In this document: piece after piece, positions 5,882 to 50,523 of the stretch
Layout of the letters: the number at the start of each line of letters is the position of its first letter
Position numbering within the stretch: the first letter of the stretch is position 1
Source: an uncultured Candidatus Peribacteria bacterium
Lineage (GTDB): Bacteria > Patescibacteriota > Gracilibacteria > Peribacterales > Peribacteraceae
NCBI GenBank assembly: GCA_964553135.1
Contig: CAZKJL010000001.1
Coordinates: 563,946 to 627,945 of the forward strand
Length of the DNA: 64,000 bases
Direction of reading: 5' to 3'
Made by a program: the position numbers and the translations under genes
Notes under the pieces: generated by a model
The model's input: only the letters and a program-made list of their open reading frames with translations
Told to the model about the DNA's origin: nothing
Database searches by the model: none

Positions 5882-5885
5882 CTTC

Positions 5886-6256: not shown

Positions 6257-6258
6257 AT

Positions 6259-6332: not shown

Positions 6333-6388
6333 AGAAGAAAAAGAGCTAGCAGATGCTACACAAGCGAGTGCGCAGTGGCAAGGCACGC

Positions 6389-29563: not shown

Positions 29564-29583
29564 GTGTCACGGTAGCTCAGTTG
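29564..29583 (+). repeat. Orphan duplicate of the 5' end of tRNA-Met
   Basis: GTGTCACGGTAGCTCAGTTG at 29564-29583 is identical to 29657-29676, the start of the intact tRNA. The sequence after it does not fold as a tRNA. Confidence 0.8.
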
Positions 29584-29658
29584 CCTAGCCGAGCTTGCGA
29601 GGCGTCAGAAATAAGGGAAGCGCGGTTGCTCATCGTTCCTTTCGATCGGTTCATACGT

Positions 29659-29734
29659 GTCACGGTAGCTCAGTTGGTAGAGCATGGGACTCATAAGCCC
29701 AGGGTCGCCGGTTCAATCCCGGCCCGTGACACCA
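29659..29734 (+). tRNA. tRNA-Met (anticodon CAU, elongator-type; Ile2/lysidine type not excluded), CCA encoded
   Basis: Acceptor GTCACGG/CCGTGAC, D arm GCTC-AGTTGGTA-GAGC, anticodon loop CTCATAA, T arm GCCGG-TTCAATC-CCGGC, ACCA. Confidence 0.85.
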
Positions 29735-31413
29735 TACAGGTCGCTAATGTTATGACGGCTATCAGACTTCTCTGACTCAGGAATCATAAGCTCCAGAGTC
29801 ACGTCTGAGCCGTCAATTACTATGCGCTTCACAAGGTCATGAATGATGAGGCGTTTTGTTTCAAAATCCAGCTTCGCCAATGCCTTAGCGTACTTTTTTG
29901 CTATGTCCTTTGCGGCAATCAGACGCTCTCTCCGCTCCTCTGCATCCATCAGTTGAGACGCTATCGCTTCCAGGTCATCTGTGAGCTTAATTTTATCCTC
30001 TGTAATGCGCTTAGATTCTACCTCCAGTTCTCCTTCACCCTGATAGTCAAAACCCTTCTGATAGAGGTTCTTCACCCTCTGCCATTCTGCGGTTAATGCA
30101 TCAAACTCTTGCTGCTTCTCTGCTCTTTCCTGCTCAAGCTCGTATACATTCACTTTCTTTTTCTCTTCTTCCTCAATGCGCTTAATGAATACCTTGGGGT
30201 CAGATAACAACTGGGATACCTCCTGCCACACCCTTCCTTCAAGGATAGAACCCGAAATCTCTTTGTTATCACAAGGCGTAGGACTCTTACTCTTATTGGC
30301 TTTGCGACAACGATATTGCGGTAATTCGCCTATCTTTGTTTTCACGCCATCAATCGTTTTAATTTGAGGCTTCATGTAGCCCCCATAAGTAGACATGCAC
30401 CTGGCGCAATCCACTTTTCCAGAAAGCAGATATGTGTGCCTTCCCAGTTTTTGGGTGCGCTTGTTCTGTTCCAGTAGAGATTGTGCCTTCTTCCATATCT
30501 TTTTGCTGATGATCTGTGGACAAGGTATTGGAATCCAATCTTCCTCAGGATTCAGAACCTCCTTCATTTTTTTGGCTACAGCATCGTATTTCTTAGTCTT
30601 CTTTCCATAGTAATACAGGCCTGTATAGGCCTCATTCCTAAGGAGGCGGCCAACTGTTTTGTCGTGCCAGTAATTAGCTGGATTCACTTTGCGAATCTCC
30701 TTCTTGAGTTTCTTCTTTTTTCTGAGCTTATCCGCAACGCGGTCTGCCTGGGTTGGAATCTGTAAGGCATTCAATCGCTGCTGAATCTCGTAGGTTGTTT
30801 TTCTGTCTCTCACGAACCACTTAAATATCTTCTGCACGATCTTAGAAGTTTCAGGATTGATAGCGATTTTTTGGGAGTCAGGGTCTATGTCATAGCCATA
30901 TGAGTGCATCCCACCCACCCATTTCTTGTCTTTAGCAGCCTCAACTCTGCCTATGGCTGTGCGTTCCATAATTAAGTCCCTCTCCATCTCTGCAATGATT
31001 CCCAGGAGTCCTAGCATGAACTTTCCAAAGGTCGTTGTGGTGTTCACTTCCTGCTGAGACGTAGCGATGAAATCTATGTCTATATCCCTTAAATCCTCAA
31101 TAGCATTGAGCAGATAGCGCGTTTTGCGGAAGAATCTATCCAGCTTCCACACTAAGACCACATCAAACTCCTTCTTCTTCGCGTCCTCAAACAAGCGCGG
31201 TAACTCTGCTCTCTCGTGAATCTCAGACGCTCCTGAGAAGCCATCATCTATGTAGATATATTTCTCATTAAACGTATAAAGTTCGTCGTTTGCTGCCAGC
31301 CACTTCCGCATTTGTGATATCTGGGAGTCCTTTCCGTACTTCTCTCCTTGCTCAGTAGTACTCACACGAACATACATGCAAGCACGTCTCTTTGTGTTGT
31401 CTTCTTTCTTCAT
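29713..31413 (-). CDS. Large serine recombinase
   Basis: Resolvase catalytic domain (MYVRVSTTEQ, VLVWKLDRFFR), recombinase domain, zinc ribbon (CARC...CRKAN) and C-terminal coiled coil. The stop codon lies inside the tRNA-Met T-loop. Confidence 0.9.
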   Translation of the reverse strand: MKKEDNTKRRACMYVRVSTTEQGEKYGKDSQISQMRKWLAANDELYTFNEKYIYIDDGFSGASEIHERAELPRLFEDAKKKEFDVVLVWKLDRFFRKTRYLLNAIEDLRDIDIDFIATSQQEVNTTTTFGKFMLGLLGIIAEMERDLIMERTAIGRVEAAKDKKWVGGMHSYGYDIDPDSQKIAINPETSKIVQKIFKWFVRDRKTTYEIQQRLNALQIPTQADRVADKLRKKKKLKKEIRKVNPANYWHDKTVGRLLRNEAYTGLYYYGKKTKKYDAVAKKMKEVLNPEEDWIPIPCPQIISKKIWKKAQSLLEQNKRTQKLGRHTYLLSGKVDCARCMSTYGGYMKPQIKTIDGVKTKIGELPQYRCRKANKSKSPTPCDNKEISGSILEGRVWQEVSQLLSDPKVFIKRIEEEEKKKVNVYELEQERAEKQQEFDALTAEWQRVKNLYQKGFDYQGEGELEVESKRITEDKIKLTDDLEAIASQLMDAEERRERLIAAKDIAKKYAKALAKLDFETKRLIIHDLVKRIVIDGSDVTLELMIPESEKSDSRHNISDLYGVTGRD

Positions 31414-31653: not shown

Positions 31654-33441
31654 ATGTTGGGCATCTTCCGCGTACTCTTTGGCAAACAAACATCAGGCAA
31701 TTCCCTAGTTTCCCAGTCCCCAGCAAAGAGTAATTCAAAGGGAACTCCATTTATTGATATCACTAAGGCAAAAATAGTTGTGCTCCCCAGGCTGCCCACA
31801 GCCAATGAATATCAAAAAGAGGGCATCTCTCATCCTCAGGAATACTGGGAGAGCTACAACAAAGGACAATCGCTCTATGGCAGAGGATGGTACGAGAAAG
31901 CCAAGGTGGAGTTTCTAAAGATTTACGATAATGAGCATGGGAATGCGTACTTCAGCCATCTCCTGCGAACGTACAGGCAGGGCGCAGAACGGTTTATAGA
32001 GAAGAAGAAATACGAAGATGCTCTACGCGAATACACGGAAATGTTTATAAAATGCCCTAATACAACGAATACGGATGTAAGGAAGTACAATAAACTCATT
32101 GATGCGATGGGGGCAGATGTGAAGAAAAAGCAGCTTATTGAAGTGGAGAAAGAGGAACCTGAATTTGTCTGCGATGGAAAAGTGATTGCCTTCCTTTCGG
32201 AAGCGAAGAAGCCCAAAGGCTTTAAGATTGAATACGATAACGAACGGCTCTCCCAGTATGCCCTTCGCAACAAAAAGCAGACGCTCACACCGCTGCTTCC
32301 GTACATCGTAGTTGAAGGCAACACAGTGCAGTACGCGGATACGGTTGAGTTCCCAAAAACGAGCCGCAAGCTCTACAGAATAAAAACAATACCAACTCCC
32401 TCTACCCCCTTCATGTTCAGTACGGAGGACTTACAGATTTACCTCTCTGACTGGCAATTCAATGAGCTACAGCACTTGGATGCATCCAGGTACACATCAG
32501 AGAAATACCATCTTCGGTGCATTGATATGGCTGGCGATCTTTCCGCTTTTGTCTTCACCATCGTTGATGAATGCTACCTAGTGAATGAGAATTTTAAGGT
32601 ATTCGGCGTATGGAGAGTTCCCTACAAAATTGATACGCAAGATGCAAAATATAAGAGAGAAACAAGGAGCGGAAACAATGGCAATGCTCAGAATACTGAT
32701 GTGCGCGAGGCACTGAATACCTTGGGAATCTCCAAAGATCAGCCCACCACAGACGATGTGAAACAGGCTTTCAGGCAGTTAACGAAGCAATATCATCCTG
32801 ACAAATACAAAGGCGAGGATGCGGAAGAGCGCACGAAGGCGATCATTGGCGCGTATGAACTCATTAAGAATGCGGACTTGCAGGGTGTGAATGCAGCGGA
32901 CATGGAAGATGAGTACTGGATGGAGGTGACACACACCTCAACATTTAATGCACACGGCTTTGAATTCACACTGCAAATGGGAATGGTGGTAGACCCTTCA
33001 GACTGGATATATGGAACTGGAATGGCGAAGGATGGCTCTCGTATTTACCTGGGTTGTTACTCAGGAAAAGTGTATTCCATCAACACGGAGGGAGTTGCGG
33101 ATATGGTCTACGTTATCCCCAGCGCAGAGCCAATATCTGAGATAATGGAATGCGGCGAATACCTTCATATATCTACATACTCACAGGTCTACATTATTCA
33201 TATAGAAGAACAGCGATTCATTAAAGCCATTCAACTGCATGGAGAAGAAAACGGTGCATCAGGATACGTTAAATACTATGAGGATGGATTCGTTCATGTG
33301 CTGGGTGATGCAGTTACAATCCATGACTGCAAAGGCGAAAAGTTAGGTTCTGTGAGCTTCGCAAAGAGTCTAAAATCTATCTGCGTTGCAGACGGGAAAT
33401 TCGTCTTTGAAACAGCTAGCAAACTGTATTTGTTTGGATGA
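31654..33441 (+). CDS. J-domain (DnaJ-like) protein with TPR-like N-terminal region and beta-propeller-like C-terminal region
   Basis: Central J domain DDVKQAFRQLTKQYHPDKYKGEDAEERTKAIIGAYELIKN with the HPD motif. The C-terminal roughly 170 aa have repeated beta-strand units (GSRIYLGCYSGKVYSIN, YLHISTYSQVYIIH, GFVHVLGDAVTIHD, GKFVFETASKLYLF). Confidence 0.7.
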   Translation: MLGIFRVLFGKQTSGNSLVSQSPAKSNSKGTPFIDITKAKIVVLPRLPTANEYQKEGISHPQEYWESYNKGQSLYGRGWYEKAKVEFLKIYDNEHGNAYFSHLLRTYRQGAERFIEKKKYEDALREYTEMFIKCPNTTNTDVRKYNKLIDAMGADVKKKQLIEVEKEEPEFVCDGKVIAFLSEAKKPKGFKIEYDNERLSQYALRNKKQTLTPLLPYIVVEGNTVQYADTVEFPKTSRKLYRIKTIPTPSTPFMFSTEDLQIYLSDWQFNELQHLDASRYTSEKYHLRCIDMAGDLSAFVFTIVDECYLVNENFKVFGVWRVPYKIDTQDAKYKRETRSGNNGNAQNTDVREALNTLGISKDQPTTDDVKQAFRQLTKQYHPDKYKGEDAEERTKAIIGAYELIKNADLQGVNAADMEDEYWMEVTHTSTFNAHGFEFTLQMGMVVDPSDWIYGTGMAKDGSRIYLGCYSGKVYSINTEGVADMVYVIPSAEPISEIMECGEYLHISTYSQVYIIHIEEQRFIKAIQLHGEENGASGYVKYYEDGFVHVLGDAVTIHDCKGEKLGSVSFAKSLKSICVADGKFVFETASKLYLFG

Positions 33442-33447
33442 GATGTC

Positions 33448-34767
33448 TTATTGAATCTGAGCCTCTGGTGTCCCAGTAGGGAGGGTTTCGGTTGCCAGCT
33501 TCGGAGGAGCTATTAGCTCAGTGACCATCTCTGGTAATTCTGGAAGTTCAGGCAGAAGGTTGCCCATGTCTTTCACCTTTTCCAGTGAGCGCGTCACGCT
33601 CTTCTGTCCAAGCCATGACTTGCCCACAGCATCGTTCCACGACTTAGAGGCATACTCTAGCCCTTTGTGAACGCCAACGAGCCTTTGAACGAAGTTCTCC
33701 AAGCGTCTACCCAGTTCTTTCACTTCTACGGAAAGTGCCTGAGCTTGTGTTGCAATTCTGTGCTGCCGCCATGCGTCAGCAATGAGCCAAATGAGAGGCA
33801 TGAGCGTTGCAGGACTCGTTACAATGACTTTCTGTGCCGCACAGTCCTGTAGCAACTCCTGGTCACATTCAAGTGCTGCTCTCATAGCGGCCTCACTGGG
33901 AATGAAGATCACAACGTAAGGTACTGAATCAGGTACGAACTCTTTATATTCGCGTTTTGTTAAATCTTTCACGCGATCTCTGAGCTTCGTACAAAACTCT
34001 TTATGCAGTAGCTTGCGCTCTTCATCGGTCTTAGCGTTATCTGCCGCCAGATAACTCTCGTACAGGGAGGCCTTGGCATCAATGGCAAGGGAGCGGCTGC
34101 TATGAGGGAGTTTAATGATGCAGTCTGGACGCAAACGGCGTCCCTCATCATCCAGGGATGTTGTCTGAATTGTGTAATCCGTTCCTTCTCTCAGATCACT
34201 CATTTGCAAGATATTTCTCAGCACTAACTCTCCCCATCGTCCGCGTACTGCGCCGCTAGTCGTTAGAGCGGTTTTAAGATGCTGAGTCTCCTCTATCAGC
34301 TTCTGTTCCTGTGTGCTCAATCCCTCAATCTGTTTTTCTAGCTGCGCGTACTTCACTGTCCTATCTGTCTCAAACTGAGTGATCTTGTCATTCGCACTCT
34401 TTAGCTGATCTGTCAGACCCTTCACTATGGATTCAATGGCTTGTTTACTGAGTTCCATTTTTCCCTCTGCTGCCGTAGTGATCTGAGTGAGGTCTTTTTT
34501 GGCACTGGCCTCATACAGTTTAGCCTCCTGCTCTAAGACTGTGGATGCCACTGCTTTAAAAGTGGTCTCCAATTTCTTCTCTGTTAACTGCATATCCTGG
34601 ATACGCAGATCGTAGGCCGTCTTAAGGTTCGCGATCTCGCTTTGATGCTGTAGCTCCTTTTGTACCATCTGGCCTCTCAGGGTGGCTATCGCAGCGTTAC
34701 GCCAAAGAAACACACCTACGCCTCCCAGCAGTCCGCCTAGGCCAATGAATAGAAGGTTGGTGAGCAT
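33448..34767 (-). CDS. rmuC: DNA recombination protein RmuC
   Basis: N-terminal TM helix, long coiled coil, and RGRWGELVLRNIL...LRPDCIIKLP...LAIDAKASL, the RmuC nuclease-like core. Confidence 0.85.
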   Translation of the reverse strand: MLTNLLFIGLGGLLGGVGVFLWRNAAIATLRGQMVQKELQHQSEIANLKTAYDLRIQDMQLTEKKLETTFKAVASTVLEQEAKLYEASAKKDLTQITTAAEGKMELSKQAIESIVKGLTDQLKSANDKITQFETDRTVKYAQLEKQIEGLSTQEQKLIEETQHLKTALTTSGAVRGRWGELVLRNILQMSDLREGTDYTIQTTSLDDEGRRLRPDCIIKLPHSSRSLAIDAKASLYESYLAADNAKTDEERKLLHKEFCTKLRDRVKDLTKREYKEFVPDSVPYVVIFIPSEAAMRAALECDQELLQDCAAQKVIVTSPATLMPLIWLIADAWRQHRIATQAQALSVEVKELGRRLENFVQRLVGVHKGLEYASKSWNDAVGKSWLGQKSVTRSLEKVKDMGNLLPELPELPEMVTELIAPPKLATETLPTGTPEAQIQ

Positions 34768-35310: not shown

Positions 35311-36276
35311 GTGAAGTTTGGCTTCCGCACACCATCACTCAAAAAAAGATTCGCAGCCAGAACATCTGTGAAGCGATTCGTGCGGCACTCTATGGGATTG
35401 AAGGCTCCTAGAGGAATGGGGATGCTCACAAACCCCAAGAAAGCCCTCTACAACAAGGTCTACAGGAAGACGACTTTCGGCATTGAGGATGTACTAAAGA
35501 GCGGCAAACGCACTGCATCTAAAGCCTCTCATTCTTCCGCTCCTGTTTCCCTCAACTCTATGTCCAAGCCGCCAATGGGTGCTTCTCAGAAGAAGATTTT
35601 ATGGATTGGAATTATTGGAACAATCGTCCTGATCTTCACTGGAGTTGGCGTAGTACTCGCGCCTTTCTTCCTCATTGGAGTGGTCTACTACTGGAATAAA
35701 ACTCCTGAAGTCAGGATGAAGAAGGCACTGACGATGAGCAATTACCTCTATAAGAAAGGACAGATACAAGAATCTATTGATGCTCTTTTGCCTTTTAAGG
35801 ATGCCAAAAACTATGAGGTCTCTAGCCGCCTCGCACATCGGTACGGACAACTGGGAAACTATGCAGAGGCAGAGACGTATGGAAGTTTTTGCTACGAGCG
35901 GAACCCTCATGACCTGGAGAATTTATATGTGCATTCCATCACTCTCTTTAATTTGAAGAAGTACAAAGAGTCGCAAGCAGCACTCTCCATTCTCCCAGAT
36001 TCCGCGCAGACAGAACCCATATTCGCAAACATCATCGGTGCGAACTACAACGGCATGGGGCAGGAAGATATAGCTGTAGAAATTTATAAGAAGTGCCTTG
36101 GCAGAAAGCAGAACATTGATGGTGAAGAGATCAGCATAGCCATTAACCTGGCGAAGATTCTCATTGAGAAAAAGAAGAAGGCAGATGCCAAAAAGTTCCT
36201 TCTGAGAATCCTCGCAGTTAGCCCAATGCATGAGGAAGCAACGGAACTGTTGGCGAAGACAGAGAAAAACGATTAA
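35311..36276 (+). CDS. Membrane-anchored TPR-repeat protein with basic N-terminal motif
   Basis: GTG start. N-terminus KFGFRTPSLKKRFAARTSVKR...GMLTNPKKALYNKVYRKTTF, TM helix ILWIGIIGTIVLIFTGVGVVLAPFFLIGVVYY, then TPR-like repeats. Confidence 0.6.
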   Translation: MKFGFRTPSLKKRFAARTSVKRFVRHSMGLKAPRGMGMLTNPKKALYNKVYRKTTFGIEDVLKSGKRTASKASHSSAPVSLNSMSKPPMGASQKKILWIGIIGTIVLIFTGVGVVLAPFFLIGVVYYWNKTPEVRMKKALTMSNYLYKKGQIQESIDALLPFKDAKNYEVSSRLAHRYGQLGNYAEAETYGSFCYERNPHDLENLYVHSITLFNLKKYKESQAALSILPDSAQTEPIFANIIGANYNGMGQEDIAVEIYKKCLGRKQNIDGEEISIAINLAKILIEKKKKADAKKFLLRILAVSPMHEEATELLAKTEKND

Positions 36277-39200
36277 TCGCTTATACGAATCTTCTCCGTG
36301 TTCTTGCACTTAGGATATTTGCTACATCCAAAGAACACTCCATATCGTCCCTTCTTGGGCTTCATTGTGCCTCCACAGCCAGGTAGCGGACACTCGTAAT
36401 GCTGCAAGCTCGTGATATCTATGCTCTCAGTCTTCTGCTTCCGTAGGTTACGAGCATTCGTTTTTGCGCCGCATTCGCTGCATTCAAAATAGACACCGAA
36501 CTTCCCATTCTTCCAAACCGTCTCACCATTGCAATCATCACAGAGAGGATTTTCTTTCTCGTGAATGCTGATGCCCTTTCCTCCCGAAGGAGTACAAACG
36601 AGTTGGGCTATCTGGCTGCATGTCTTCTTCCCAGGGATTCTCAACATGCTTTCTGAGGAGTTTGTATGAGAGAGAATGTTGAGGGAGCCATGCCAGAGAA
36701 TGGAGCCATCAATCACGCAAATCTTTTCATGCATCTTGGAGCGCAGATCAACAGTTACGCCTGTATCTATAAGGGCTTGCACGGCAGGAGTGAGGCCATT
36801 AGCCATGATCTCCCCCAGTTCCTCAATGGGACGGAAAACAAGGCGTATCAACACTCCACGCCTCTGGGCATCCTTCAGGAGTTCTACCCACCTACTAAGG
36901 CCATTGAGCGTCACGAATGGTGAGAAGATCGTGATGGATTTCTCCGCCTTCTGGATGTCTTGGGTGAATGCAGGATAGAAACTGCCTTCATTGAAAGCCC
37001 CTGCACTATCCATATCCAGCTTGAGCTTTGTTTTCGTGAGACGGTCTAGAGCGTCATGCCAGTCCTGATCGCCAATGGGTAACAGTTCGCGCACATCCAG
37101 CGGAGAGCCGTGCTTCTCAAAGTATTTCAGGATGTTCAATACCAACATGCCTTCCTTGGCGGTTCTCCGTAGGAACTCAAAATTGGCCACGAGGATGATA
37201 TGTTCCTTGGCGCGGCTGAAAGCCACATTCAGCAGTCTTCCGCCTTCCTCCTCTCTCTGTGATGCTGAGAGGAACCGCCCCAAGCGCACACCCTCTGAGT
37301 CCGTGAGATCAACAATCATTGTCTCTTTCTCATTCCCTTGGAAACGGTGAACGGTAGAAGCAAATGTTGCTGGCCTTCCCAGCTTATCCTCTATGAGTGA
37401 AGCAATGAGCTTCGTTTGCGCCGCATACGGAGACACAATGCCTAGTGTTTTATTTTCCTCATCTGCCTGAGGTAAATATTTCTTTTTAGCGAAGAAAGAA
37501 ACGATGTTACGAATGAGGAGCGCATGGAACAGGTTGTAGCGCGAATACCCTCCCAGTTTCATGGAAGCCCACGGATGGAATGCGGACGTATCAACGTATA
37601 ACAAAGGCTCTTTGGAAAGGGGCATCTTGGAGACATTCTTCCCTACGCTCACATCTGGAATCAGAGGATGATCGTAGTAGAAATGTTCATTGATGCAGTC
37701 ACAGATGGCTTTCTTCATACGGAACTGAATCTGGAGCGCACAAAGGTACTCAGGAGGCTTCTTGGACTGCACTTTCTCAGGAATGCCAGCCATCTCAAAC
37801 ACGTCTTTCTTGAGCCATTCCAGAGCCTTTGGCTCATCAGACATGACAATGGGTGAAAGCTGTCTGAAGTCCCCAGCGATGACCACGGATTGCGTAGCAA
37901 GCCCAGAGGCGTAATACGTCATGGGAAGCATGACCATGGAGGCTTCATCCACGATCACCACATCAAACTCTCTATGCAGATGCGACTCTAAGAACGTCCT
38001 GTAGACGGTTGTAGCCAGGATGCGGCAGTTCTTGAGTACCTGTTCACGGACGGCTGCTAACTGGGTATCAATCTCCTTCACTTGGAGGTACAGATTCTCA
38101 ATCTGCTTCTCTGTAGTGGCAATGGAGGAAGGATACGATACAACGTTAGGATGCTCCTTGAGCTTCGCTTCAATATCCTTCGTCAGTGCCTCTAGCTCAT
38201 CTGCTTCCTTCCCTGCATTGGCAACAGCCTTATCAATCTCTGATGCTGCGTCCACTGAGGATTTCCGCATGATCTCCGCTTGGCTCATCTCTCGCATGAT
38301 CTTTTCTGGATGCAAACCCAGCACCATGCGCTTGAGGGAGCCAGCGTTCTTCGCTCGTGCCAACTTCTCCTCCAAGGAGTCCTTTTTAGTCTGATACTGA
38401 GATATCTTTGCCGCCAACCCAGAGCGTTTCTGCTGATGGGCTTGGAGGGTCTTTGCGGAGAATTCCATCTTCTTTTCCGCATCCTTCAGTGCCTGATGGA
38501 AGCGGATGGCTTCTTGCATCGGCTGTATCTGTCCCTCTAGGTGTGAGATTTCCAGTACGAGCTTCTGCCTTTCCCCCTGTAGTCCTTCACTCAGGCGTTC
38601 CACGATCTCATCAATGAGCACTTGTTTGCCATGCTTCTCAATCAGTTCCACCTTCATGGCTGGCCCCAAGCGGATGACTGAGCCGCGTTGATACTCCTCA
38701 TCTGTCACTAAGCGCTCAGCGACTTTTTCCAGAGCAGTATCCACGGCAATGTTCGTATTGGATACGAGTAGCACGGAAAGCCCTTTGCGATAGAAGCCTT
38801 CTACGACTCGTGCCAGCGTTGTGGTCTTCCCTGTTCCTGGCGGCCCCCAGACATAGGTAACTTCACTGCCAAGAGAACGGCGGATGATTCTCTGCTTCTC
38901 CTCATTCATGCCGCCAAGCAGCGTCTCATCTAGCTCAGCATCAGCAGAGGCTATATTTCCTTCTCCAATGACCTTCTCAGCGAGTCCAGCGTTAAAAGCT
39001 GCCTCTCCGCTCTGCACTTCACCCAGACGCTCCTTGAGGCGTTCTAGAAGGAACGAGTTATCAATGATGATTCGCGCACTGGAGATCGTGTCTCCAAGAT
39101 CAGCCTCCAATGCCACGATCAATACGCCCTCATTCGTAGAAACGATGATGCCTGGGATATCATCTTTCCCACAGGCAAGGCGTATGGGTGAATCATCTTT

Positions 39201-39374
39201 CAACTGCGTACCTTCAATATCTTCTGAGAGAGGAAAGCGATAGAGGGTGTTTGTCCCTTCAGTCTGTAGGCGTTCTCCTCCGCGCACAGTGATTTGTTGA
39301 GAGTTACCTTTCTTGCGAATGGCGGCAACCTCTAGGCCCAAAGCCTCAATCATGTGCGTTAGATTGTCCGCCAT
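36273..39374 (-). CDS. SF1 (Upf1/DNA2-like, COG1112-type) helicase fused to a PLD/HKD nuclease domain and two topoisomerase-type zinc ribbons; Mokosh type II-like
   Basis: Walker A GPPGTGKT (aa 177-184), coiled-coil insertion, motif II VVIVDEASMV, FRMKK and VHRFQGNEKE helicase motifs, a single HKD motif MHEKICVIDGSILWHGSLN (about aa 881-899), then CDDC...CSEC and CPLPGC...GCSKYPKC ribbons. Confidence 0.8.
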   Translation of the reverse strand: MADNLTHMIEALGLEVAAIRKKGNSQQITVRGGERLQTEGTNTLYRFPLSEDIEGTQLKDDSPIRLACGKDDIPGIIVSTNEGVLIVALEADLGDTISSARIIIDNSFLLERLKERLGEVQSGEAAFNAGLAEKVIGEGNIASADAELDETLLGGMNEEKQRIIRRSLGSEVTYVWGPPGTGKTTTLARVVEGFYRKGLSVLLVSNTNIAVDTALEKVAERLVTDEEYQRGSVIRLGPAMKVELIEKHGKQVLIDEIVERLSEGLQGERQKLVLEISHLEGQIQPMQEAIRFHQALKDAEKKMEFSAKTLQAHQQKRSGLAAKISQYQTKKDSLEEKLARAKNAGSLKRMVLGLHPEKIMREMSQAEIMRKSSVDAASEIDKAVANAGKEADELEALTKDIEAKLKEHPNVVSYPSSIATTEKQIENLYLQVKEIDTQLAAVREQVLKNCRILATTVYRTFLESHLHREFDVVIVDEASMVMLPMTYYASGLATQSVVIAGDFRQLSPIVMSDEPKALEWLKKDVFEMAGIPEKVQSKKPPEYLCALQIQFRMKKAICDCINEHFYYDHPLIPDVSVGKNVSKMPLSKEPLLYVDTSAFHPWASMKLGGYSRYNLFHALLIRNIVSFFAKKKYLPQADEENKTLGIVSPYAAQTKLIASLIEDKLGRPATFASTVHRFQGNEKETMIVDLTDSEGVRLGRFLSASQREEEGGRLLNVAFSRAKEHIILVANFEFLRRTAKEGMLVLNILKYFEKHGSPLDVRELLPIGDQDWHDALDRLTKTKLKLDMDSAGAFNEGSFYPAFTQDIQKAEKSITIFSPFVTLNGLSRWVELLKDAQRRGVLIRLVFRPIEELGEIMANGLTPAVQALIDTGVTVDLRSKMHEKICVIDGSILWHGSLNILSHTNSSESMLRIPGKKTCSQIAQLVCTPSGGKGISIHEKENPLCDDCNGETVWKNGKFGVYFECSECGAKTNARNLRKQKTESIDITSLQHYECPLPGCGGTMKPKKGRYGVFFGCSKYPKCKNTEKIRISD

Positions 39375-39381
39375 AGTTAAT

Positions 39382-41487
39382 TTAGTAGTTGTAATCCTTC
39401 ATGCAGTAGCTGCCGTTAAGTGAATAGCCAGCGTTACAAAGGCATCTCTCATCCTCAACGCTGAAATATCCACCAGTCCCACAATACGATTTACGAACAC
39501 AACTGCCGTCCTTTGGGTAGTAATCGCTATCGCAGATGCAGCCACCAGTCTGCTGATTGAAGGTTCCGCCGTAGCAAGAAGGCTCTCTCACACAGCTTCC
39601 ATTCTGCTTGTAGTAGCCCTCATCACAATCACATGCGCCCGTCTGTCTGTTGTAGGTTCCGCTATAGCCACAAGCAAGGTATTCACTGATGCATGTGCCG
39701 CCCTGTGATACATATCCAGTGTTGCAGTAGCACTTCCCAGCATCCTCATCAAAACTGCTGTTATATGGACAATCCACTTCTTCGTAGCATTTTCCATCTT
39801 TAACGTAGTAACCGTAATCACATTCACACTGTTTTGCCGTGTAATTAAACGTGCTGTTTGAGACGCAGTTTGGAACCTTTACACATGTATTGTTATTGGC
39901 GTAGTAGCCAGTATTACAAACACAGCTTGCCTCTGCGTAGCTATAGAAAGCATTGGAGCCAAATTCTGAGCAATCATGCGTTGGAGTGGGTGCAGGAGGT
40001 GGAGTGCTAATGGTCGGAGTGGGAGGCGTTGTTTCACGATAGGTTGGCTGTTGCTGTGGAGTGCCAGACGTTCCGCTATTGAAATCAGAGGGGTCAAGAT
40101 AAGCCACACCTCTATGGCTCTCTGGGATGTTGCCCAAGAACGTCTCAACGCTGCTTGCTCCAATGGCAAACTTTACGCCATCAATGCTAAGGGTATTTAC
40201 GCCCACTACTTCACTTGCCGTATTCAATAGCGGCCCTCCAGAGTTACCATGAGTGATCTCCGCATCTGTTTGTATGAACTCCATCCCAGAATTAGAGGTG
40301 CGAACGGCACTAATAATTCCCTTTGTGATGCTCTCTGTGAAAGACTGAGGGCTACCGACTGCAAACACAGTCTGCCCCTGCCTTGCTGTTGATTGCAGGG
40401 ACAACGATGGAAATGGACTGGGATAATCCACAACAAAATCACCATTTTGGAGTACGAGATTCGTAACAGCCAATGCAGCAAGATCATTTGTTCCTCCACC
40501 TGTTGCAATTACCTGTGCAATACGCGCACGTTTCTGATCATCAACGATAATTACAGGAGGGCCAGAGCCAAGTGCATAGGTTCTATCTTCATAGGCAACA
40601 GGCTCAACAACGTGGAAGTTTGTAATGAGTGTGTAGTCATCAATGAAAAAGGCTGTTCCTTGCGAAACCGTATCATCGCCGCCTGGAACGATGACTGTAA
40701 CTACAGATGGAAGTGCTTTAGTAAGAACTTTAGAGGCATCGCCATCCTGTCTCCTAATTCGCTCTAGCTCCGCTTCAGCCTCATCCGTTTTCCCTCTCAA
40801 TTCATCCTGAACTTGCTGAGCTTCCCTGAGCAATTGGCTCACGCTGTTCTCAGGAGTGGCAATGCTGACTTTGATTTCTTCTTGTTTCTCCAGGGTGAAT
40901 TTTTGGGCTTCTGCAAGTTCAGAATCAGTCATACTCTTTTTGAGTTCCTCAAGAGCTATATCAGCTTTTTCATGCCCTTGAGCCTTAGCTAGACTCCACC
41001 AAACATAGGCCTTTGATCTACTCTCAGGTGCGCCCTTCCCTGACTCAAACACAATTCCCAAGTAGTACTGAGCCTCAGCATTTCCTTGATGCCCAGCCTT
41101 AGCGAACCATTCTTTCGCAGTGGGGAAATCCTGAGCAACTGCCTCTCCTCTGTAGTAGAGCAAACCCAGAATCAATTGAGCGGTTACGTTGCCCTGTTCT
41201 GCTGAGCGGCTTAGCCATTGAACAGATGTTGCAGCGTCTTTAGGTACTTCATTTTTCCCTACGAAAAATAATCCTGCCAAAGCCAATTGTGACTCCGCAT
41301 TCCCATCATTGGCGGATTTACGGAGAGCGACCATGTCTGTACTAGCCTCTGCCTTAGGGAAAGGGAGATCAGTTGTGCGATCTGCGAATGCACGAACTGA
41401 AAGAATTGCTAGAACGACAATAGAAAGACAGACTATGCTTCCCCCTATGACTAAGCCAATTTTAGAAGTATCAGGCTTGAGCGGCAT
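39382..41487 (-). CDS. Membrane-anchored Sel1-repeat / trypsin-like serine protease / Cys-rich-repeat protein
   Basis: N-terminal TM helix. Sel1 repeats (GNAESQLALAGLF, GNVTAQLILGLLYY, GNAEAQYYLGIVF). Coiled coil. Protease triad contexts TNFHVV, NDLAALAV, GNSGGPL. Pro-rich linker. Six repeats of about 32 aa with four cysteines each (C-x-C-x2-GYY-x4-6-C). Confidence 0.75.
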   Translation of the reverse strand: MPLKPDTSKIGLVIGGSIVCLSIVVLAILSVRAFADRTTDLPFPKAEASTDMVALRKSANDGNAESQLALAGLFFVGKNEVPKDAATSVQWLSRSAEQGNVTAQLILGLLYYRGEAVAQDFPTAKEWFAKAGHQGNAEAQYYLGIVFESGKGAPESRSKAYVWWSLAKAQGHEKADIALEELKKSMTDSELAEAQKFTLEKQEEIKVSIATPENSVSQLLREAQQVQDELRGKTDEAEAELERIRRQDGDASKVLTKALPSVVTVIVPGGDDTVSQGTAFFIDDYTLITNFHVVEPVAYEDRTYALGSGPPVIIVDDQKRARIAQVIATGGGTNDLAALAVTNLVLQNGDFVVDYPSPFPSLSLQSTARQGQTVFAVGSPQSFTESITKGIISAVRTSNSGMEFIQTDAEITHGNSGGPLLNTASEVVGVNTLSIDGVKFAIGASSVETFLGNIPESHRGVAYLDPSDFNSGTSGTPQQQPTYRETTPPTPTISTPPPAPTPTHDCSEFGSNAFYSYAEASCVCNTGYYANNNTCVKVPNCVSNSTFNYTAKQCECDYGYYVKDGKCYEEVDCPYNSSFDEDAGKCYCNTGYVSQGGTCISEYLACGYSGTYNRQTGACDCDEGYYKQNGSCVREPSCYGGTFNQQTGGCICDSDYYPKDGSCVRKSYCGTGGYFSVEDERCLCNAGYSLNGSYCMKDYNY

Positions 41488-42616
41488 GGTGTGAGTTTTG
41501 GAAATTTTGATATGCGAACGTGCCGCGCACTCCGTTTATTAAACCAAAAAGGAATACTATTGCGATTCCAATACCCGCTCCGCTGATCTGTCCTTCTGAA
41601 AACTGGAATGTCTTTTCAAGGATGAAGAGTACCAATCCAGCCACCGCTGCCGTACGAGAATAGAACTGCATACCTAATCCAATGACAGCAAAGAGAAGGG
41701 CATCCAACATTGCCCACGCATCAATACCACCTATGGATTGATCTGTAGCCAACGCAAACAGTGCAACTCCAGCAGTGAGAACCGCGATGACATACGCAAC
41801 TCCATAACCTTGCGCCACTGCCTTCTTCGCGCTCTCTATTGAATCAATTGTTAGGAACCACTGATTAGATGTTTTCTTCTTAGATGCAGTTACTATAGGA
41901 GTGGAAGCTGCCTTGGCAGATTGTTTTTTAGGAATGTCCATTTTCGTAGTAAAACCTTCCTGTTTCTTCCCCAAAAAATTGAGTTCCTTGGGGCCAAGGA
42001 TGCCAACACTGTATCCTGCTTTCTTCACCATTTTTATAGCATCTGCATACGCACAGAAGAACGCGATAATGCCAATGATGCCACCTAGAAGCAGTGAGCC
42101 TATAGCAGCGTATTTCCATGCGGATTTCCAGACCAATATCTCAATGGCAATCATGCAGTAAACGACTCCCAAGAATATAAGACCAGCAATCCCTGCTACA
42201 AAATCACTGTTAAGAATTGCAGCAAGAATAAGGCCAAGAATTCCACCCAGGAAAAAGACATTGCACCACTTCAGATGAACAGCGACCTTATCGGCTTTAC
42301 CGCTCTCTGATGGAACTGTTTTAACCAAAGCTGCTTTGGGTGGAGTGTGCGCTTGCGCTTTATGACTTCCAAAGCCCACATAAAGAACACAGTGGTATAA
42401 GCCCACTGCTACCAGATACACAACGAGGGGAAAAATGATGATTGCAGTCTTATCGTCCTCCTCCAGGGTCAATAAAATACCCAACAGCAAAGCCAATCCC
42501 GTGCCTCCTAAAATGAAAACTTCAGCGAGTCTGTTCCACCATTTTTCTTGTACTTCAAGCCTACGCGGAAACAGGGGCAGTTTCATAGCTTCAAAGATTA
42601 CAGGAGATGTAAGCAA
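41471..42616 (-). CDS. Multi-pass membrane protein (hypothetical)
   Basis: About 9-10 hydrophobic helices with a Lys-rich cytoplasmic linker. 17-nt overlap with the downstream protease gene. Confidence 0.6.
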   Translation of the reverse strand: MLTSPVIFEAMKLPLFPRRLEVQEKWWNRLAEVFILGGTGLALLLGILLTLEEDDKTAIIIFPLVVYLVAVGLYHCVLYVGFGSHKAQAHTPPKAALVKTVPSESGKADKVAVHLKWCNVFFLGGILGLILAAILNSDFVAGIAGLIFLGVVYCMIAIEILVWKSAWKYAAIGSLLLGGIIGIIAFFCAYADAIKMVKKAGYSVGILGPKELNFLGKKQEGFTTKMDIPKKQSAKAASTPIVTASKKKTSNQWFLTIDSIESAKKAVAQGYGVAYVIAVLTAGVALFALATDQSIGGIDAWAMLDALLFAVIGLGMQFYSRTAAVAGLVLFILEKTFQFSEGQISGAGIGIAIVFLFGLINGVRGTFAYQNFQNSHHAAQA

Positions 42617-42687
42617 GCACCAAGGCTAGATCGCATCGGAGGGGCTTATCCTATGCCAAGCACTGACGTTCTTTTCTACGCTCTAAC

Positions 42688-42900
42688 TCAGCGTCCGTGC
42701 TTAATTCGTGGGTCTTTCTTAGCTCTCTTCTGTCGTTCTTTATTGAACTCAGCAACATCAGCCTCTAGGAAAATTTTCCCAGCCGCTGTGTCTTGGAAGC
42801 GCAGTTTTCCCTTTTTAATCAATTCGTTAACTCTTGGCCTAGAGATGCCAAGGATACGAGCCACATCACCTATGCTTAAGACCTTTGGAAAGTTGTTCAT
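42688..42900 (-). CDS. Excisionase/MerR-type helix-turn-helix DNA-binding protein
   Basis: LSIGDVARILGISRPRVNELIKKGKLRF is an HTH_17-like pattern. Start at MNNFPKV. Confidence 0.65.
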   Translation of the reverse strand: MNNFPKVLSIGDVARILGISRPRVNELIKKGKLRFQDTAAGKIFLEADVAEFNKERQKRAKKDPRIKHGR

Positions 42901-43006
42901 AAAAAGCCAAACGTAGCGAAAACTCACACTATCGCTTGACTTTCTGTTTAGGTAGTTTGCACATAGATACTATCCATATAGAAAGGAGTCTGATAAATTA
43001 ACTTCC

Positions 43007-43408
43007 ATGTTTTCCATAAAGCACACCTTCGCCGTAATCCTTTCTATGATCGTTCTAGTCTCTTGCACCAAAGGGACAGACCCTAAGCTCTTGCAGGACG
43101 TGAGTACCTACAACGCCACTACACATCAGCAATACATGGAAACGTATCTGTCTTTTGTTGTGGCTCTTAAAGCAGGGGGATACGAGGAAACAGGAGACAG
43201 CATCAATAAATTCATGACGATTCAAGAGACTGCATCTGCGTTCTGGAAAGGGCTTGAGGTTCCTCCTGAGGCAGAAGGATACAAAGTACAAATGCTGGAT
43301 TCATTTGTAGGAGCCAAGGCAATAGACAAGCGATATGAGCAATACACCCAGGCCTATAAGTCGTTTCTCCAAACAGTATTTCCCAAAGGAGAAATCGCTT
43401 CTCAGTAA
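43007..43408 (+). CDS. Lipoprotein (hypothetical)
   Basis: Signal plus lipobox LVSCTKG. 133 aa. Confidence 0.5.
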   Translation: MFSIKHTFAVILSMIVLVSCTKGTDPKLLQDVSTYNATTHQQYMETYLSFVVALKAGGYEETGDSINKFMTIQETASAFWKGLEVPPEAEGYKVQMLDSFVGAKAIDKRYEQYTQAYKSFLQTVFPKGEIASQ

Positions 43409-43428
43409 GTCATTCCTTTCCTTTGCAT

Positions 43429-44586
43429 ATGGCTCCCAAGCCCAACATCCATAAACGTATCGCGCTCAGTTTTGGCGGATTCTTCCTGCTGCTTATGGCC
43501 TCCACTTCGTTTCTAGGTGCAGCAGAGCCAGTGATCACGGTTCCTCCAACTCAAGTCTATGCCAAAGGGAATCTTACCCTCACAGGCAGCATCACAGCGG
43601 ATTGCTTCTGCACAGTTAAGGCAACGCTGAGACTCGTGGAGGATTCAGGCAAGCCCTATGACCCCAAGGTAGTGGATGCAGCACTAGAGTTGAATGAGCA
43701 TGGGCAGTTCACCCATACTCTGTCTCTCGTAAACGATGAAAAGGATTCTGCCATCGGCATCACAGCAGAAGTCTCCCCTCGCTTCTGGTTCGGCTCACAG
43801 AAGACGGGCAAGGCATCAATCACTGTGAAGCCTCAGGAGACACCTATAGAGCTTGTAGACGCTCCTACGGAGTGGAAGGACAGAGAGATCATATTCACGC
43901 TCAAGCTGCTCTCAGGCTCCTCCGTAGACCTTAAGGGAGGACTGGCCACAGTACTAAGCAGTGAGCAGTATCCCTTCAAAGCAGAGTGGGCAGATATTCC
44001 AGGTTCCACGGATAGCAGGAAATTGGTGACGCTCAAAGGAGCGTTTGATACCGACTACAATCAGGAGTTTGAGGGGTTCAAGTTCACTGTGAAGGCGAAG
44101 GGCTACAAGACGCATGAAGAGACGATCAGGGTGAATAACCAGAACTACGATGCCAAGAGGGTTGCGGCGGACAAAGAGGCAAGCCAGAGAGAAATGAAGC
44201 TCCTGACGATGGAGCAGTTCAACTACGGTGACGATATCCAGGTTGCAGTGAGTAGGAACATCCCTAAGAGCAGAACCGTGGGATACAGGTACGTCCTCAA
44301 TCCTGATACATCTCACTTCATCCGCATTCTTGTGAGTGTAAAGAATGCCAGCTTGGGAGAAATCCATGTGAACCCCAACTACATCACGCTCAGAGACAGC
44401 ACTGGCTACACCTACAACCCTGATGAGGCTACCTACGGCCTCAACTATCTGGATGCCATTGATCTCCAGCCAGGCGGCGCAACCTCAGGTTGGCTGGCCT
44501 TCATCGTTCCCAAAGATGAGAAGGAACTGACGCTGATCTACAGCAGCTTTGATGGGACGATAACGAAGAAAATCTATGTGCAATGA
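43429..44586 (+). CDS. Secreted protein with C-terminal DUF4352-like Ig-fold domain
   Basis: Signal peptide. C-terminus ILVSVKNASLGEIHVNPNYITLRDSTGYTYNP...PGGATSGWLAFIVPKDEKELTLIY matches the DUF4352 pattern. Confidence 0.6.
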   Translation: MAPKPNIHKRIALSFGGFFLLLMASTSFLGAAEPVITVPPTQVYAKGNLTLTGSITADCFCTVKATLRLVEDSGKPYDPKVVDAALELNEHGQFTHTLSLVNDEKDSAIGITAEVSPRFWFGSQKTGKASITVKPQETPIELVDAPTEWKDREIIFTLKLLSGSSVDLKGGLATVLSSEQYPFKAEWADIPGSTDSRKLVTLKGAFDTDYNQEFEGFKFTVKAKGYKTHEETIRVNNQNYDAKRVAADKEASQREMKLLTMEQFNYGDDIQVAVSRNIPKSRTVGYRYVLNPDTSHFIRILVSVKNASLGEIHVNPNYITLRDSTGYTYNPDEATYGLNYLDAIDLQPGGATSGWLAFIVPKDEKELTLIYSSFDGTITKKIYVQ

Positions 44587-47504: not shown

Positions 47505-47830
47505 GTTATCTATTTCTTATTCATCGTGCGGACGCTCTTCTCTCTTCTGCCGTTGTTGCTACTACATGTGTCCAACTGGGTCAGTGTTTTGGCATCCGTG
47601 AGAGCAAAGTGATTGCAACACTGAGACGGTTTCAGTTCCGTGCGCGGCTTTGGCTTTCTAGAGCGAAGGTTGATGGCGGCACTGAGATAGCTTTCAAGAA
47701 TGACCAGCTTTGGCTTACCCAAGCCAGAGTTAGTCTTTGGCGAGAGATAGGCTCTTGGGATTGTGTGAACAGCATATCTGGAAGCCGCATCTGGGAAGCA
47801 TCGCACGTCCTTTCATCGCCAGTCCTATGA
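47501..47830 (+). CDS. Hypothetical protein, possible HTH
   Basis: Translationally coupled on both sides by ATGA overlaps. The LGQCFGIRESKVIATLRRF segment is HTH-like. Confidence 0.4.
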   Translation: MSYLFLIHRADALLSSAVVATTCVQLGQCFGIRESKVIATLRRFQFRARLWLSRAKVDGGTEIAFKNDQLWLTQARVSLWREIGSWDCVNSISGSRIWEASHVLSSPVL

Positions 47831-49059
47831 GTGACTATTCAGAACAGAACAGGCTTAACGCAGAGCGCATCTACAACACGCTCTCAGCCATGAAGTGTAA
47901 TCCTAGGAGAGCAGGAGGGTTCCAATGCTCGTCTCATTGCCCCTTCCATGAAGACGATAAGCCCTCTCTATCACTGGATATGCGGCAAGGAGTGTTCTAC
48001 TGCCACTCATGCCAGTCAGGTGGCACGGTGTGGGACTTTGAAGCCCTGCTTGGCAGCACGTCATACAGTTCCTTTGTGAAGGGGGGCGACCCTAGGAAGG
48101 GAAAGCAGCGCAAGAATGATAACCAAAGACTCGTGAGGGCTTTACAGCGGTACAACGAGATCGAGCCGCTGCCAGCGGACAAGGCAGAAGTTCTTAGATG
48201 CCATGATGATACAATCAGGTATTGGCATGACTGCTTATTGTCTTCAAAGGAGGCGCGGCGCATGGTCACTGGCAAATATGAAGAGGCGTTCGTCCGCAGC
48301 TACTACCACTGGCAGACGAAAGAGAGGATAACCACGCCTCATAACTATGTTAGCCCCAGATTCACCTTGGAGACCGTGCGCCAATTCAGGATAGGGTATG
48401 CCCCTAAGTCGTCTATAGAGCTAACCAATATGCTGAGAGCGAAGTACTCAGAAGAAGTCATTATAGGAACAGGACTCGTGAGAAGACACGGCGGCTCAGG
48501 ACTGATTGCCTCCTTTGCTGGGCGCATTATTTATCCATACCTTCTCCAAGGTAAGCCTTGCTATGCGATAGCCAGGATTACACCCGATTCGCCAACGAAC
48601 CTTTCAGACTGCAAATACCTGAAACAAAAAACGCGAGATAGAAAATACAGCTTCCCTCTGCGTAATCCTCCTCTTTTCAATCAGGATGCCATATGGACAC
48701 ACCAAAAAATTCTGATTACGGAGGGGGTTACAGATGCGATCAAGGCATGTGAGGCAGGAGTGTCAGCTATATCACCCGTCACTATCGCCTTCATAAACAA
48801 GCATCTTGATCTCATAGCTCACATGCTATTGGGAAAAGATGTGGTCATCTGCAATGACAATGAAGAGAACGGCGCAGGAGAGAAGGGCATGAGACACATG
48901 GAAGAGCAACTTAAAAAGCGAGGTGTGGACGTGCGTTGCATGACCTTGCCCAGAAAGGCAGGGCAACCGAAGGTGGATGTATGTTCATTCATCAATGACC
49001 AAGGAGCGGAAGCCTTTCTAGCCGAAATAAAGTCTCAGACTGGCATCGTTTTCCCTTAG
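47827..49059 (+). CDS. DNA primase (CHC2 zinc finger plus TOPRIM, DnaG-like)
   Basis: CPFHEDDKPSLSL...FYCHSCQSGG zinc finger. TOPRIM motifs ILITEGVTDAIKA and VVICNDNEENGAGEKG. Confidence 0.8.
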   Translation: MSDYSEQNRLNAERIYNTLSAMKCNPRRAGGFQCSSHCPFHEDDKPSLSLDMRQGVFYCHSCQSGGTVWDFEALLGSTSYSSFVKGGDPRKGKQRKNDNQRLVRALQRYNEIEPLPADKAEVLRCHDDTIRYWHDCLLSSKEARRMVTGKYEEAFVRSYYHWQTKERITTPHNYVSPRFTLETVRQFRIGYAPKSSIELTNMLRAKYSEEVIIGTGLVRRHGGSGLIASFAGRIIYPYLLQGKPCYAIARITPDSPTNLSDCKYLKQKTRDRKYSFPLRNPPLFNQDAIWTHQKILITEGVTDAIKACEAGVSAISPVTIAFINKHLDLIAHMLLGKDVVICNDNEENGAGEKGMRHMEEQLKKRGVDVRCMTLPRKAGQPKVDVCSFINDQGAEAFLAEIKSQTGIVFP

Positions 49060-50323: not shown

Positions 50324-50523
50324 CACCTGAAACCATCTGTAATTGAATGCGTTCTTGCTTCGTTAGTTCCCTTACATAAGCCACTTTCCAGTTAATCAGT
50401 ATCAGGTAATAATATTGGCGACCCGTGCTACCATTCAACTTCGCTTCGCGAAGTCTCATGGCAAGCCATCGAGGTTCAACTTGTCCTGAACGGAGTGAAG
50501 GATCCCGGCCCGTGATACCGCTC

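Follow-up and report, generated by a model that had tools for sequence, protein, structure and literature searches.

A helicase-phospholipase D gene and a membrane protein-protease gene pair on a tRNA-Met island of a Candidatus Peribacteria bacterium: probably a mosaic and not a single defence system

Does the tight packing of four co-oriented genes on a mobile element mean that their products work together? The question is raised by a gene block on the minus strand of a 64,000-nucleotide stretch of DNA (contig CAZKJL010000001.1, positions 563,946 to 627,945; hereafter, at its full length, the window), whose nearest genomic relatives are metagenome-assembled genomes of Candidatus Peribacteria, the host being therefore a bacterium of the candidate phyla radiation (CPR). 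The block lies on an integrative island and encodes, from upstream to downstream, a small helix-turn-helix (HTH) protein, a polytopic membrane protein, a Sel1/HtrA-like protease with a Cys-rich C-terminus and a protein in which a helicase is fused to a nuclease of the phospholipase D (PLD) type. The initial annotation of this DNA considered the block to be either a new multi-component variant of the Mokosh defence systems or two cargo modules sharing one transcript. The comparative data presented here indicate that the cluster is quite probably a mosaic of three independent units on the island and not one four-part defence system. The genes concerned, as given in the list of open reading frames (ORFs) save for the alternative ATG start of the third, are:

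36273-39374, minus strand: helicase-PLD-zinc-ribbon gene, 1033 aa
39382-41487, minus strand: Sel1/HtrA-like protease/Cys-rich gene, 701 aa
41471-42616 (TTG start, 381 aa) or 41471-42586 (ATG start, 371 aa), minus strand: polytopic membrane protein gene
42688-42927, minus strand: HTH_17/excisionase-family gene, 79 aa

The layout is as the initial annotation had described it, i.e., four co-oriented and tightly packed ORFs spanning 36273-42927. Only 7 nt lie between the protease stop and the helicase ATG, the membrane protein gene runs 17 nt into the protease gene, and the HTH stop is separated from the membrane protein gene by 71 nt if the TTG start is considered or by 101 nt if the start is the ATG at 42586, which is the one found in public annotations (P0241, 371 aa). 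A spacing of <=10 nt is found in 4 of the 32 co-directional ORF pairs of the window, so that tight packing is unusual there, this being a crude ORF-based count rendered noisy by the spurious ORFs that a high guanine-plus-cytosine (GC) content generates.

Distribution of the helicase gene and of the gene pair

The close set of helicase loci consists of six islands, namely the window and five recovered loci (L001 to L005) whose helicases are 83-91% identical to that of the window, the mutual identity within the set being 81-95%; L004 and L005 were the two useful loci yielded by a genome-contig scan with the window protein alone. The modular distribution of the genes is evident from this set. A protease gene precedes the helicase gene in the window, in L001 and in L005 and is missing from this position in L002, L003 and L004. 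More precisely, L005 contains membrane protein, protease and helicase genes, and L001 contains the protease and helicase genes, with a 122-aa zinc-ribbon/transmembrane (TM) gene occupying the place of the membrane protein gene. In L003 and L004 a DUF4352 gene is located ~100 nt upstream of the helicase, with neither a protease nor a membrane protein gene, and in L002 the 110 nt available upstream of the helicase are unrelated sequence. L005 and L004 share a collinear island backbone with 81-92% nucleotide identity and differ at this point by a single clean indel, 3.9 kb vs 83 bp, which terminates exactly at the helicase ATG; the 3.9-kb segment of L005 comprises a 172-aa gene, the membrane protein gene and the protease gene. 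A six-way alignment likewise places the start of homology of the helicase loci at the ATG. These presence/absence variants among near-identical islands show that the genes are separable.

Protease and membrane protein homologues are absent from all of 14 more distant helicase-PLD loci, each of which has at least 1.5 kb of upstream sequence. Two of these loci (L008 and L090) encode helicases 46-48% identical to that of the window and the remaining 12 are metagenome loci with 25-38% identity over at least ~80% of the query; the metagenome scan made use of generic Walker-A-type patterns and returned mostly distant relatives (25-45% identity), which count as negatives and do not represent the close family.

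The reciprocal survey, starting from the protease, leads to the same result. The full-length protease family, consisting of Sel1, protease and Cys repeats, is represented by nine distinct loci with 55-100% identity. A membrane protein gene with the identical 17-nt overlap is found upstream of the protease in eight of them, the partners of L009/L010 and L012 being homologous only in their C-terminal ~150 aa, and a helicase-PLD gene is found downstream only in the window, L001 and L005. The pair occurs without helicase-PLD in L009/L010, L011, L012, L013, L014 and L015/L016, the next gene downstream being DUF6804, a convergent gene or a small one that lacks annotation. In L009/L010 (12100-13641) a DUF6804 gene for a zinc-ribbon membrane protein comes after the pair and precedes Shedu SduA (PADLOC E 6e-131), and the stretch beyond the pair seems to serve as a variable slot into which defence cargo is placed. 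Two genes for SLH-domain surface proteins precede the pair in L013, and ribosomal protein L9 is encoded near it in L012. The four-gene neighbourhood is thus conserved in neither direction, whether the search starts from the helicase or from the protease.

That the short distance between protease and helicase genes need not reflect a functional bond is illustrated by L090 (Inmirania thermothiophila, RJVI01000002.1, 7502-19120), in which a helicase-PLD-zinc-ribbon homologue with 46% identity has BrxF (2e-91) on one side and BrxC (E = 0) on the other, at distances of 10 nt and 3 nt, within a BREX type 3 locus in which PglXI is found as well. This homologue looks like a stand-alone defence cassette inside the operon of another system. 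The gene is as tightly inserted there as it is in the window, even if the host operon in the window is an envelope gene pair and not a defence system. As L090 makes clear, the cassette is accommodated in unrelated operons with hardly any spacing, and a distance of 7 nt in the window is thus no evidence for functional coupling.

Separate histories and the case for a joint system

The genes that adjoin one another in the window have separate histories. In the helicase tree the protease-linked L005 is closest to the unlinked L003 (95%) and L004 (93%), and in the protease tree each of the three helicase-linked proteases is closest to that of L013, which has no helicase, L005 grouping with L015, which has none either. 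The two trees are interleaved as to linkage and there is no co-evolution. Indeed, only 4 of the 269 variable columns of the helicase separate linked from unlinked copies, and most arbitrary 3:3 splits separate more. The ratio between non-synonymous and synonymous substitution rates (dN/dS) of the helicase amounts to 0.04-0.06 in every computable pair, with or without protease, dS being saturated in two pairs involving L002; because the ratio is equally low for L004 vs L003, both of which lack the protease, the helicase is under purifying selection on its own.

Because of saturation, dS by the Nei-Gojobori method (NG86) was not computable for most protease pairs and the identity at four-fold degenerate sites was used instead. 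When window 36273-42586 is compared with L005 6770-13105 this identity is 0.58 for the helicase, 0.28 (corresponding to saturation) for the protease and 0.39 for the membrane protein gene. Given this contrast, the exchange of the helicase cassette among islands is far younger than the divergence of the adjacent protease pair, which implies, as far as can be judged from synonymous sites, a recent recombinational replacement of the cassette alone.

An alternative is a facultative three-gene defence system, in which membrane protein and exported protease would constitute an envelope sensor or regulator of the helicase-PLD protein in some islands, the effector being also able to act alone. The addition of accessory modules is known from other defence systems, and the mobile island carries other defence-like cargo, e.g., RmuC. 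Several of our own observations also weigh against a mosaic of independent units. The protease-helicase junction measures 6-8 nt in all three linked loci, and the order membrane protein-protease-helicase recurs in the window and in L005, whose backbones are otherwise different, the order protease-helicase being found also in L001. The protease genes are synonymous-saturated across these three loci, so that an old adjacency to the helicase, preserved since then, is conceivable. Between the genes neither a terminator nor a promoter is recognisable: consensus scans of 35800-43500 detected 5 promoter-like sites vs 8.6 expected and 10 terminator-like sites vs 7.0 expected, and because no site is informatively placed these scans are uninformative on the transcription units. 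Furthermore, the comparison is limited to six close helicase loci and nine loci of the protease family, and the predicted topology of the protease has sequence features as its sole basis.

In spite of these points, we regard the three-gene system as unlikely. Each of its parts persists alone under purifying selection, the trees are interleaved with no residues specific to the linked copies, and adjacent genes differ in their synonymous-site divergence. The pair is present also in loci (L012 and L013) whose examined flanks contain neither a recombinase nor a recognised defence gene. The membrane protein and the Sel1 and Cys-rich parts of the protease match no PADLOC model, only the trypsin-like domain doing so (to the protease part of an RT-protease model). 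Finally, the predicted compartments differ and no signal relay between them is evident; a direct enzymatic partnership of helicase and protease is unlikely because the latter is predicted to be extracytoplasmic while the former has no export signal and bears nucleic-acid-binding zinc ribbons. A two-compartment unit expressed from one transcript, for which a subset of Peribacteria islands would have recruited the pair as a facultative accessory for sensing or exclusion at the envelope, the protease being active at the surface during phage adsorption and the nuclease in the cytoplasm once the phage has entered, strikes us as rather improbable.

In the mosaic that we prefer, the 7-nt junction would arise because the helicase-PLD cassette sits in the variable cargo slot directly after the pair, and the helicase and pair genes would be independent of each other though probably co-transcribed; indeed, we infer that the minus-strand genes of the block are probably transcribed together from the divergent region near 42,950. 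Of the two explanations put forward at the outset, that of two cargo modules sharing a transcript fits the data, the helicase-PLD gene and the membrane protein-protease pair each being found without the other, an outcome that the initial annotation had itself named as refuting a joint system. That of a new multi-component Mokosh variant does not, since helicase and protease are linked in three of six close and none of 14 distant helicase loci and in three of nine protease loci, and the HTH gene is never upstream elsewhere. Tight packing on a mobile island is therefore no evidence for a multi-component system, and a false lead is prevented.

The helicase-PLD protein and its relation to Mokosh

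The domain content of the proteins, as proposed by the initial annotation, was borne out by Pfam, NCBIfam and PADLOC. The features of the helicase-PLD protein, in which conservation refers to an alignment of 18 family sequences and the structure to an AlphaFold2 (AF2) model, are:

39063-39305, minus strand: N-terminal beta-barrel (aa 24-104), from AF2 secondary structure, conserved
38823-38846, minus strand: Walker A motif GPPGTGKT (aa 177-184, G177-T184), invariant
38028-38588, minus strand: antiparallel coiled coil of ~190 aa (aa 263-449) in the first RecA domain
36603-36962, minus strand: PLD nuclease domain (aa 805-924, PLDc_2) with one HKD motif
36708-36731, minus strand: HKD motif H882-x-K884-x4-D889 in the PLD domain
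36288-36542, minus strand: two C-terminal topoisomerase-I-type C4 zinc ribbons (aa 945-1029, Zn_ribbon_Top1)

Pfam recognises AAA_11 (7e-30), AAA_12 (5e-23), PLDc_2 (2.4e-12) and Zn_ribbon_Top1 (5e-11), and NCBIfam the IGHMBP2-family model TIGR00376 (1e-48), together with weak SMC coiled-coil matches and C-terminal TopA matches corresponding to the zinc ribbons. Besides the Walker A motif, the sequence D476-E477-A-S (DEAS, aa 476-479), H882, K884 and D889 of the HKD motif with the subsequent GSLN and the eight Cys of the ribbons are invariant. The AF2 model (predicted local distance difference test score, pLDDT, 75.9) consists of the N-terminal beta-barrel, two RecA domains, the coiled coil (helices 263-343, 356-405 and 411-449), the PLD domain and the two zinc ribbons. 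Its best Foldseek matches are SETX, IGHMBP2, DNA2 and UPF1 (E 1e-29 to 1e-24 for SETX, IGHMBP2 and UPF1), and the sequence matches in the PDB are IGHMBP2, DNA2 and UPF1. Neither a signal sequence, an export signal nor a TM segment was found in the sequence and the AF2 model, and Pfam and NCBIfam scans detected no Ser/Thr kinase domain.

The best PADLOC matches of the protein are MkoA (4.8e-61, in the helicase part only) and MkoC (4.4e-40). Mokosh type II is a single-gene system in whose product a COG1112/Upf1-like helicase occupies the N-terminal part and a PLD nuclease the C-terminal part, both being needed for defence (Millman et al. 2022, bioRxiv 10.1101/2022.05.11.491447). The comparison with this type made by the initial annotation holds: in the window protein, too, a single polypeptide contains an Upf1-like (COG1112, AAA_11/AAA_12) SF1 helicase with intact ATP-site motifs followed by an HKD-type PLD domain, and the family to which it belongs is found stand-alone in defence-rich, mobile contexts. 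On the other side, the MkoC profile match is a partial one, split into three pieces of which the best covers model positions 813-1112 of 1136, and MkoA scores higher; the two Top1-type zinc ribbons, the ~190-aa coiled coil and the N-terminal barrel are absent from the published description of type II, and the host is a CPR bacterium. Compared with Mokosh type I, which consists of MkoA (a helicase with a Ser/Thr kinase) and MkoB (a PLD protein), the window protein gives its best PADLOC score with MkoA and has the same two enzymatic activities, but it lacks the kinase, its helicase and PLD domains are fused, and no MkoB-like gene is located nearby.

On these grounds the gene is a putative Mokosh type II-like stand-alone effector, comparative genomics pointing to a single-gene unit, and the helicase-PLD-zinc-ribbon family may represent a distinct and mechanistically different Mokosh subtype. 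The gene, found here in a CPR host, is best grouped with type II, arguably as a zinc-ribbon subtype of its own. The literature search found neither a mechanistic study of Mokosh nor any protease/helicase-PLD system; in particular, no system combining a Sel1 protease with a helicase-PLD protein was found, and a match dealing with type III Druantia was irrelevant.

As to the mode of action, the helicase would load onto single-stranded nucleic acid of the invader, assisted in binding by the zinc ribbons, and translocate along the strand at the expense of ATP, after which the PLD domain would cut. Single-HKD nucleases such as Nuc and Zucchini need a second copy, paired with the first, to build the active site. 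The window protein shares with them the presence of a single HKD motif and it probably dimerises for this reason, the PLD domains of two protomers pairing into one HKD active site and the coiled coil being the candidate dimerisation element. Apart from this self-association the protein would act alone. Anti-phage function, substrate and dimerisation are thus presumptive properties.

Similarities with eukaryotic proteins extend to the fold, the matches with the Upf1-like helicases IGHMBP2, SETX, UPF1 and DNA2 reaching a target-normalised TM-score of 0.73, and the association of a helicase with a single-HKD nuclease recalls the MOV10L1/Zucchini (PLD6) pair of the PIWI-interacting RNA (piRNA) pathway. 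Sequence identity, however, is only 14-18%; the PLD domain alone has no significant match among solved structures, Zucchini/PLD6 being the nearest with a non-significant E of 0.39; and the two activities are fused in the window protein and set in a bacterial mobile element.

Since its closest solved relatives, DNA2, IGHMBP2, SETX and UPF1, are repair or RNA-surveillance helicases, could the protein be instead a DNA/RNA-processing enzyme of the element or of the host, involved in replication, resolution or DNA2/IGHMBP2-like repair, whose likeness to Mokosh reflects shared domains? Top1-type zinc ribbons are typical of enzymes of DNA metabolism, primase and RmuC are also encoded on the island, and the MkoC match, as mentioned, is partial. 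We nevertheless consider a processing role quite unlikely, because the family is patchy across phyla and occurs in variable, defence-rich neighbourhoods, a pattern of defence rather than of housekeeping. In addition to the BREX type 3 locus mentioned above, a homologue in a member of Blastocatellia (L008) has an nSTAND gene and the gene for a caspase/HamB-like helicase in its vicinity, and the helicase of L001 precedes a Ppl/AriA/LmuB-like ATPase gene; these neighbourhoods support a defence role. Furthermore, the presence or absence of the gene among close islands is independent of their recombination genes, and the order helicase-then-PLD is that of the validated type II Mokosh.

The putative Mokosh type II-like effector, whose carrier in this case is an integrative island in a member of the CPR (Candidatus Peribacteria), belongs to a large cross-phylum family of more than 1,200 homologues that are conserved over the full length and nest in other operons, so that the helicase-PLD-zinc-ribbon architecture could be annotated as a subtype of its own. 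Full-length homologues with ~47% identity are abundant in Acidobacteriota, Chloroflexota, Proteobacteria, Planctomycetota and other phyla. Scans of viral contigs with the helicase and with the protease returned nothing, and a tblastn search of PLSDB plasmids gave only four partial matches with ~29% identity.

The most consistent neighbour of the helicase-PLD gene in the related islands is the DUF4352 gene, whose product is probably extracellular. It lies directly upstream of the helicase in L003 and L004 and upstream of the inserted genes in L001 and L005; the window has it on the other strand, after a gene for a predicted lipoprotein (43007-43408). Its positions are:

43423-44586, window
5083-6474, L001
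1-204, L003
8521-9900, L004
4661-6040, L005

The membrane protein-protease pair, the HTH gene and the island

Two features of the pair need to be located:

39403-39972, minus strand: six EGF-like (epidermal growth factor) 4-Cys repeats of the protease, ~32 aa each (aa 506-695; 24 Cys)
41483-41884, minus strand: C-terminal 4-TM domain of the membrane protein, ~130 aa, belonging to a large family without Pfam annotation

The protease contains Sel1 (9e-19) and Trypsin_2 (9e-22) domains and a weak TIL_2 match according to Pfam. Its catalytic domain gives matches of the DegP/HtrA/DegS type, the nearest solved proteases being HTRA1, HTRA2 and DegS, and its triad, H292/D335/S416, is invariant in nine homologues, the serine motif being GNSGGP. 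The N-terminus has, in a hydropathy scan, a single hydrophobic segment (aa 10-28, the run extending to ~aa 32), which is followed by the motif A-F-A (aa 33-35) and by a conserved TTDLPFP. No PDZ domain was matched by Pfam, the C-terminus consisting of a Pro/Thr-rich linker (aa 478-503) and of the six 4-Cys repeats, in which the spacing is C-x12-15-C-x-C-x10-C-x5-6 and 20 of the 24 Cys are conserved in all nine homologues. Like the HtrA/DegP/DegS (S1C) proteases, the window protein has a trypsin-like domain with an H/D/S triad, an N-terminal export/anchor segment and a predicted extracytoplasmic location; unlike them it has an N-terminal Sel1 region, six EGF-like repeats and an obligate upstream membrane partner and lacks PDZ. 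It is thus HtrA-like in its chemistry but no member of the HtrA family, because PDZ is missing and its NCBIfam scores (35-78 bits) are far below the cut-offs (250-800 bits).

The solved HtrA/DegS relatives act outside the cytosol, i.e., in the periplasm, in the mitochondrial intermembrane space or as secreted enzymes. The protease of the window is likewise predicted to be exported and extracytoplasmic, with the Cys repeats forming a disulfide-bonded stalk. That the Cys-rich region might be a cytoplasmic zinc-binding domain was considered and rejected, given its EGF-like CxC...GY spacing, the presence of a Pro/Thr-rich linker and the export segment at the N-terminus.

The membrane protein, with ~8-9 hydrophobic helices, has no family match in Pfam, NCBIfam or PADLOC and its AF2 model is poor (pLDDT 59; predicted template modelling score, pTM, 0.39). 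The full-length family is rare (8 clusters among 5.8 billion sequences). Its C-terminal 4-TM domain, on the other hand, which has conserved motifs such as GxGMQFYSRxAA and NGxRGxFAY, belongs to a family of 1,399 representative clusters at E<=1e-3 (487 at E<=1e-10), whose members are mostly stand-alone proteins of ~140 aa, some being fused to zinc ribbons or ankyrin repeats.

The conserved 17-nt overlap indicates translational coupling of membrane protein and protease, and the two genes would constitute a translationally coupled, Peribacteria-specific envelope pair. The two proteins probably form a surface complex that would act on envelope or extracellular proteins. The most likely targets of the protease are secreted proteins or those of the surface, and the process served would be maintenance of the envelope, remodelling of the surface or interaction between cells. 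A lineage-specific pair of a membrane protein and an EGF-stalk protease may therefore matter for the surface biology of these bacteria.

The fourth gene of the block belongs to neither module. The HTH_17 Pfam match of the 79-aa protein (1e-7) reaches 32.5 bits, above the 27-bit cut-off, and that with TIGR01764 ("excise") 25 bits, below the cut-off of 28.8 bits, while PHROG excisionase families are matched at 9e-8 and 6e-7. The gene could be looked upon as the dedicated regulator of defence cargo in a regulated operon extending from HTH to helicase, as it is co-oriented, lies 71-101 nt upstream, faces the divergent intergenic region and has a small PADLOC match to mad1 (E 1.5e-6). This we hold to be highly improbable: no HTH homologue precedes the membrane protein-protease pair or the helicase in any other examined locus, in L001, L004 and L005 it is the tyrosine recombinase, and not the pair, that such homologues adjoin, and the gene is assigned to the excisionase/HTH_17 family, with a paralogue beside the tyrosine recombinase of the island. 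The HTH gene is accordingly viewed as a probable excisionase-family gene of the island backbone.

That the block resides on a tRNA-integrated island, as originally proposed, is confirmed by the tRNA-Met gene, the attachment (att) repeats, the drop in GC content, the recombinases and the primase:

29659-29734, plus strand: tRNA-Met, the integration target (ARAGORN, Rfam)
29716-29733, plus strand: att repeat at the tRNA-Met 3' end (last 18 nt), from repeat analysis
50502-50519, plus strand: distal att repeat at the far island end, matching the tRNA-Met 3' end in 17 of 18 bases, with a GC step at ~51 kb
29713-31413: serine recombinase, at one island end
49394-50323: tyrosine recombinase, at the other island end
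49056-49289: excisionase-like HTH, paralogue of the 42688-42927 gene, beside the tyrosine recombinase
47737-49059: primase, at the same end as the tyrosine recombinase

The island is integrated at tRNA-Met and bounded by 18-nt att direct repeats; its length is ~20.8 kb, since the 3' 18 nt of tRNA-Met recur at 50502-50519. Its GC content is 0.45-0.50 vs 0.55-0.60 outside, falling from ~0.58 to ~0.47 between ~29.7 and 51 kb. Having two different recombinases, the element may be composite or tandem. Rfam found only the tRNA over 29-52 kb.

Further island cargo consists of an RmuC-family gene (33448-34767), matched by the PADLOC model RTasRmuC (3.5e-48) with no reverse transcriptase nearby, and of the adjoining gene for a 595-aa protein (31654-33441), whose sole domain is a central DnaJ. 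At its 3' end the helicase-PLD gene meets a convergent gene (35311-36276, plus strand) for a protein with tetratricopeptide repeats (TPR) and an internal TM segment, of which the related islands yielded no homologue; the two 3' ends overlap by 4 nt (36273-36276), so that no terminator space is left behind the helicase gene. Finally, an exact 20-nt copy of the tRNA-Met 5' end (GTGTCACGGTAGCTCAGTTG) (29657-29676) is present at 29564-29583, 93 nt upstream of the tRNA gene; ARAGORN and Rfam detect no second tRNA near 29564-29583, and the copy may have been left behind by a former integration or rearrangement at this site.

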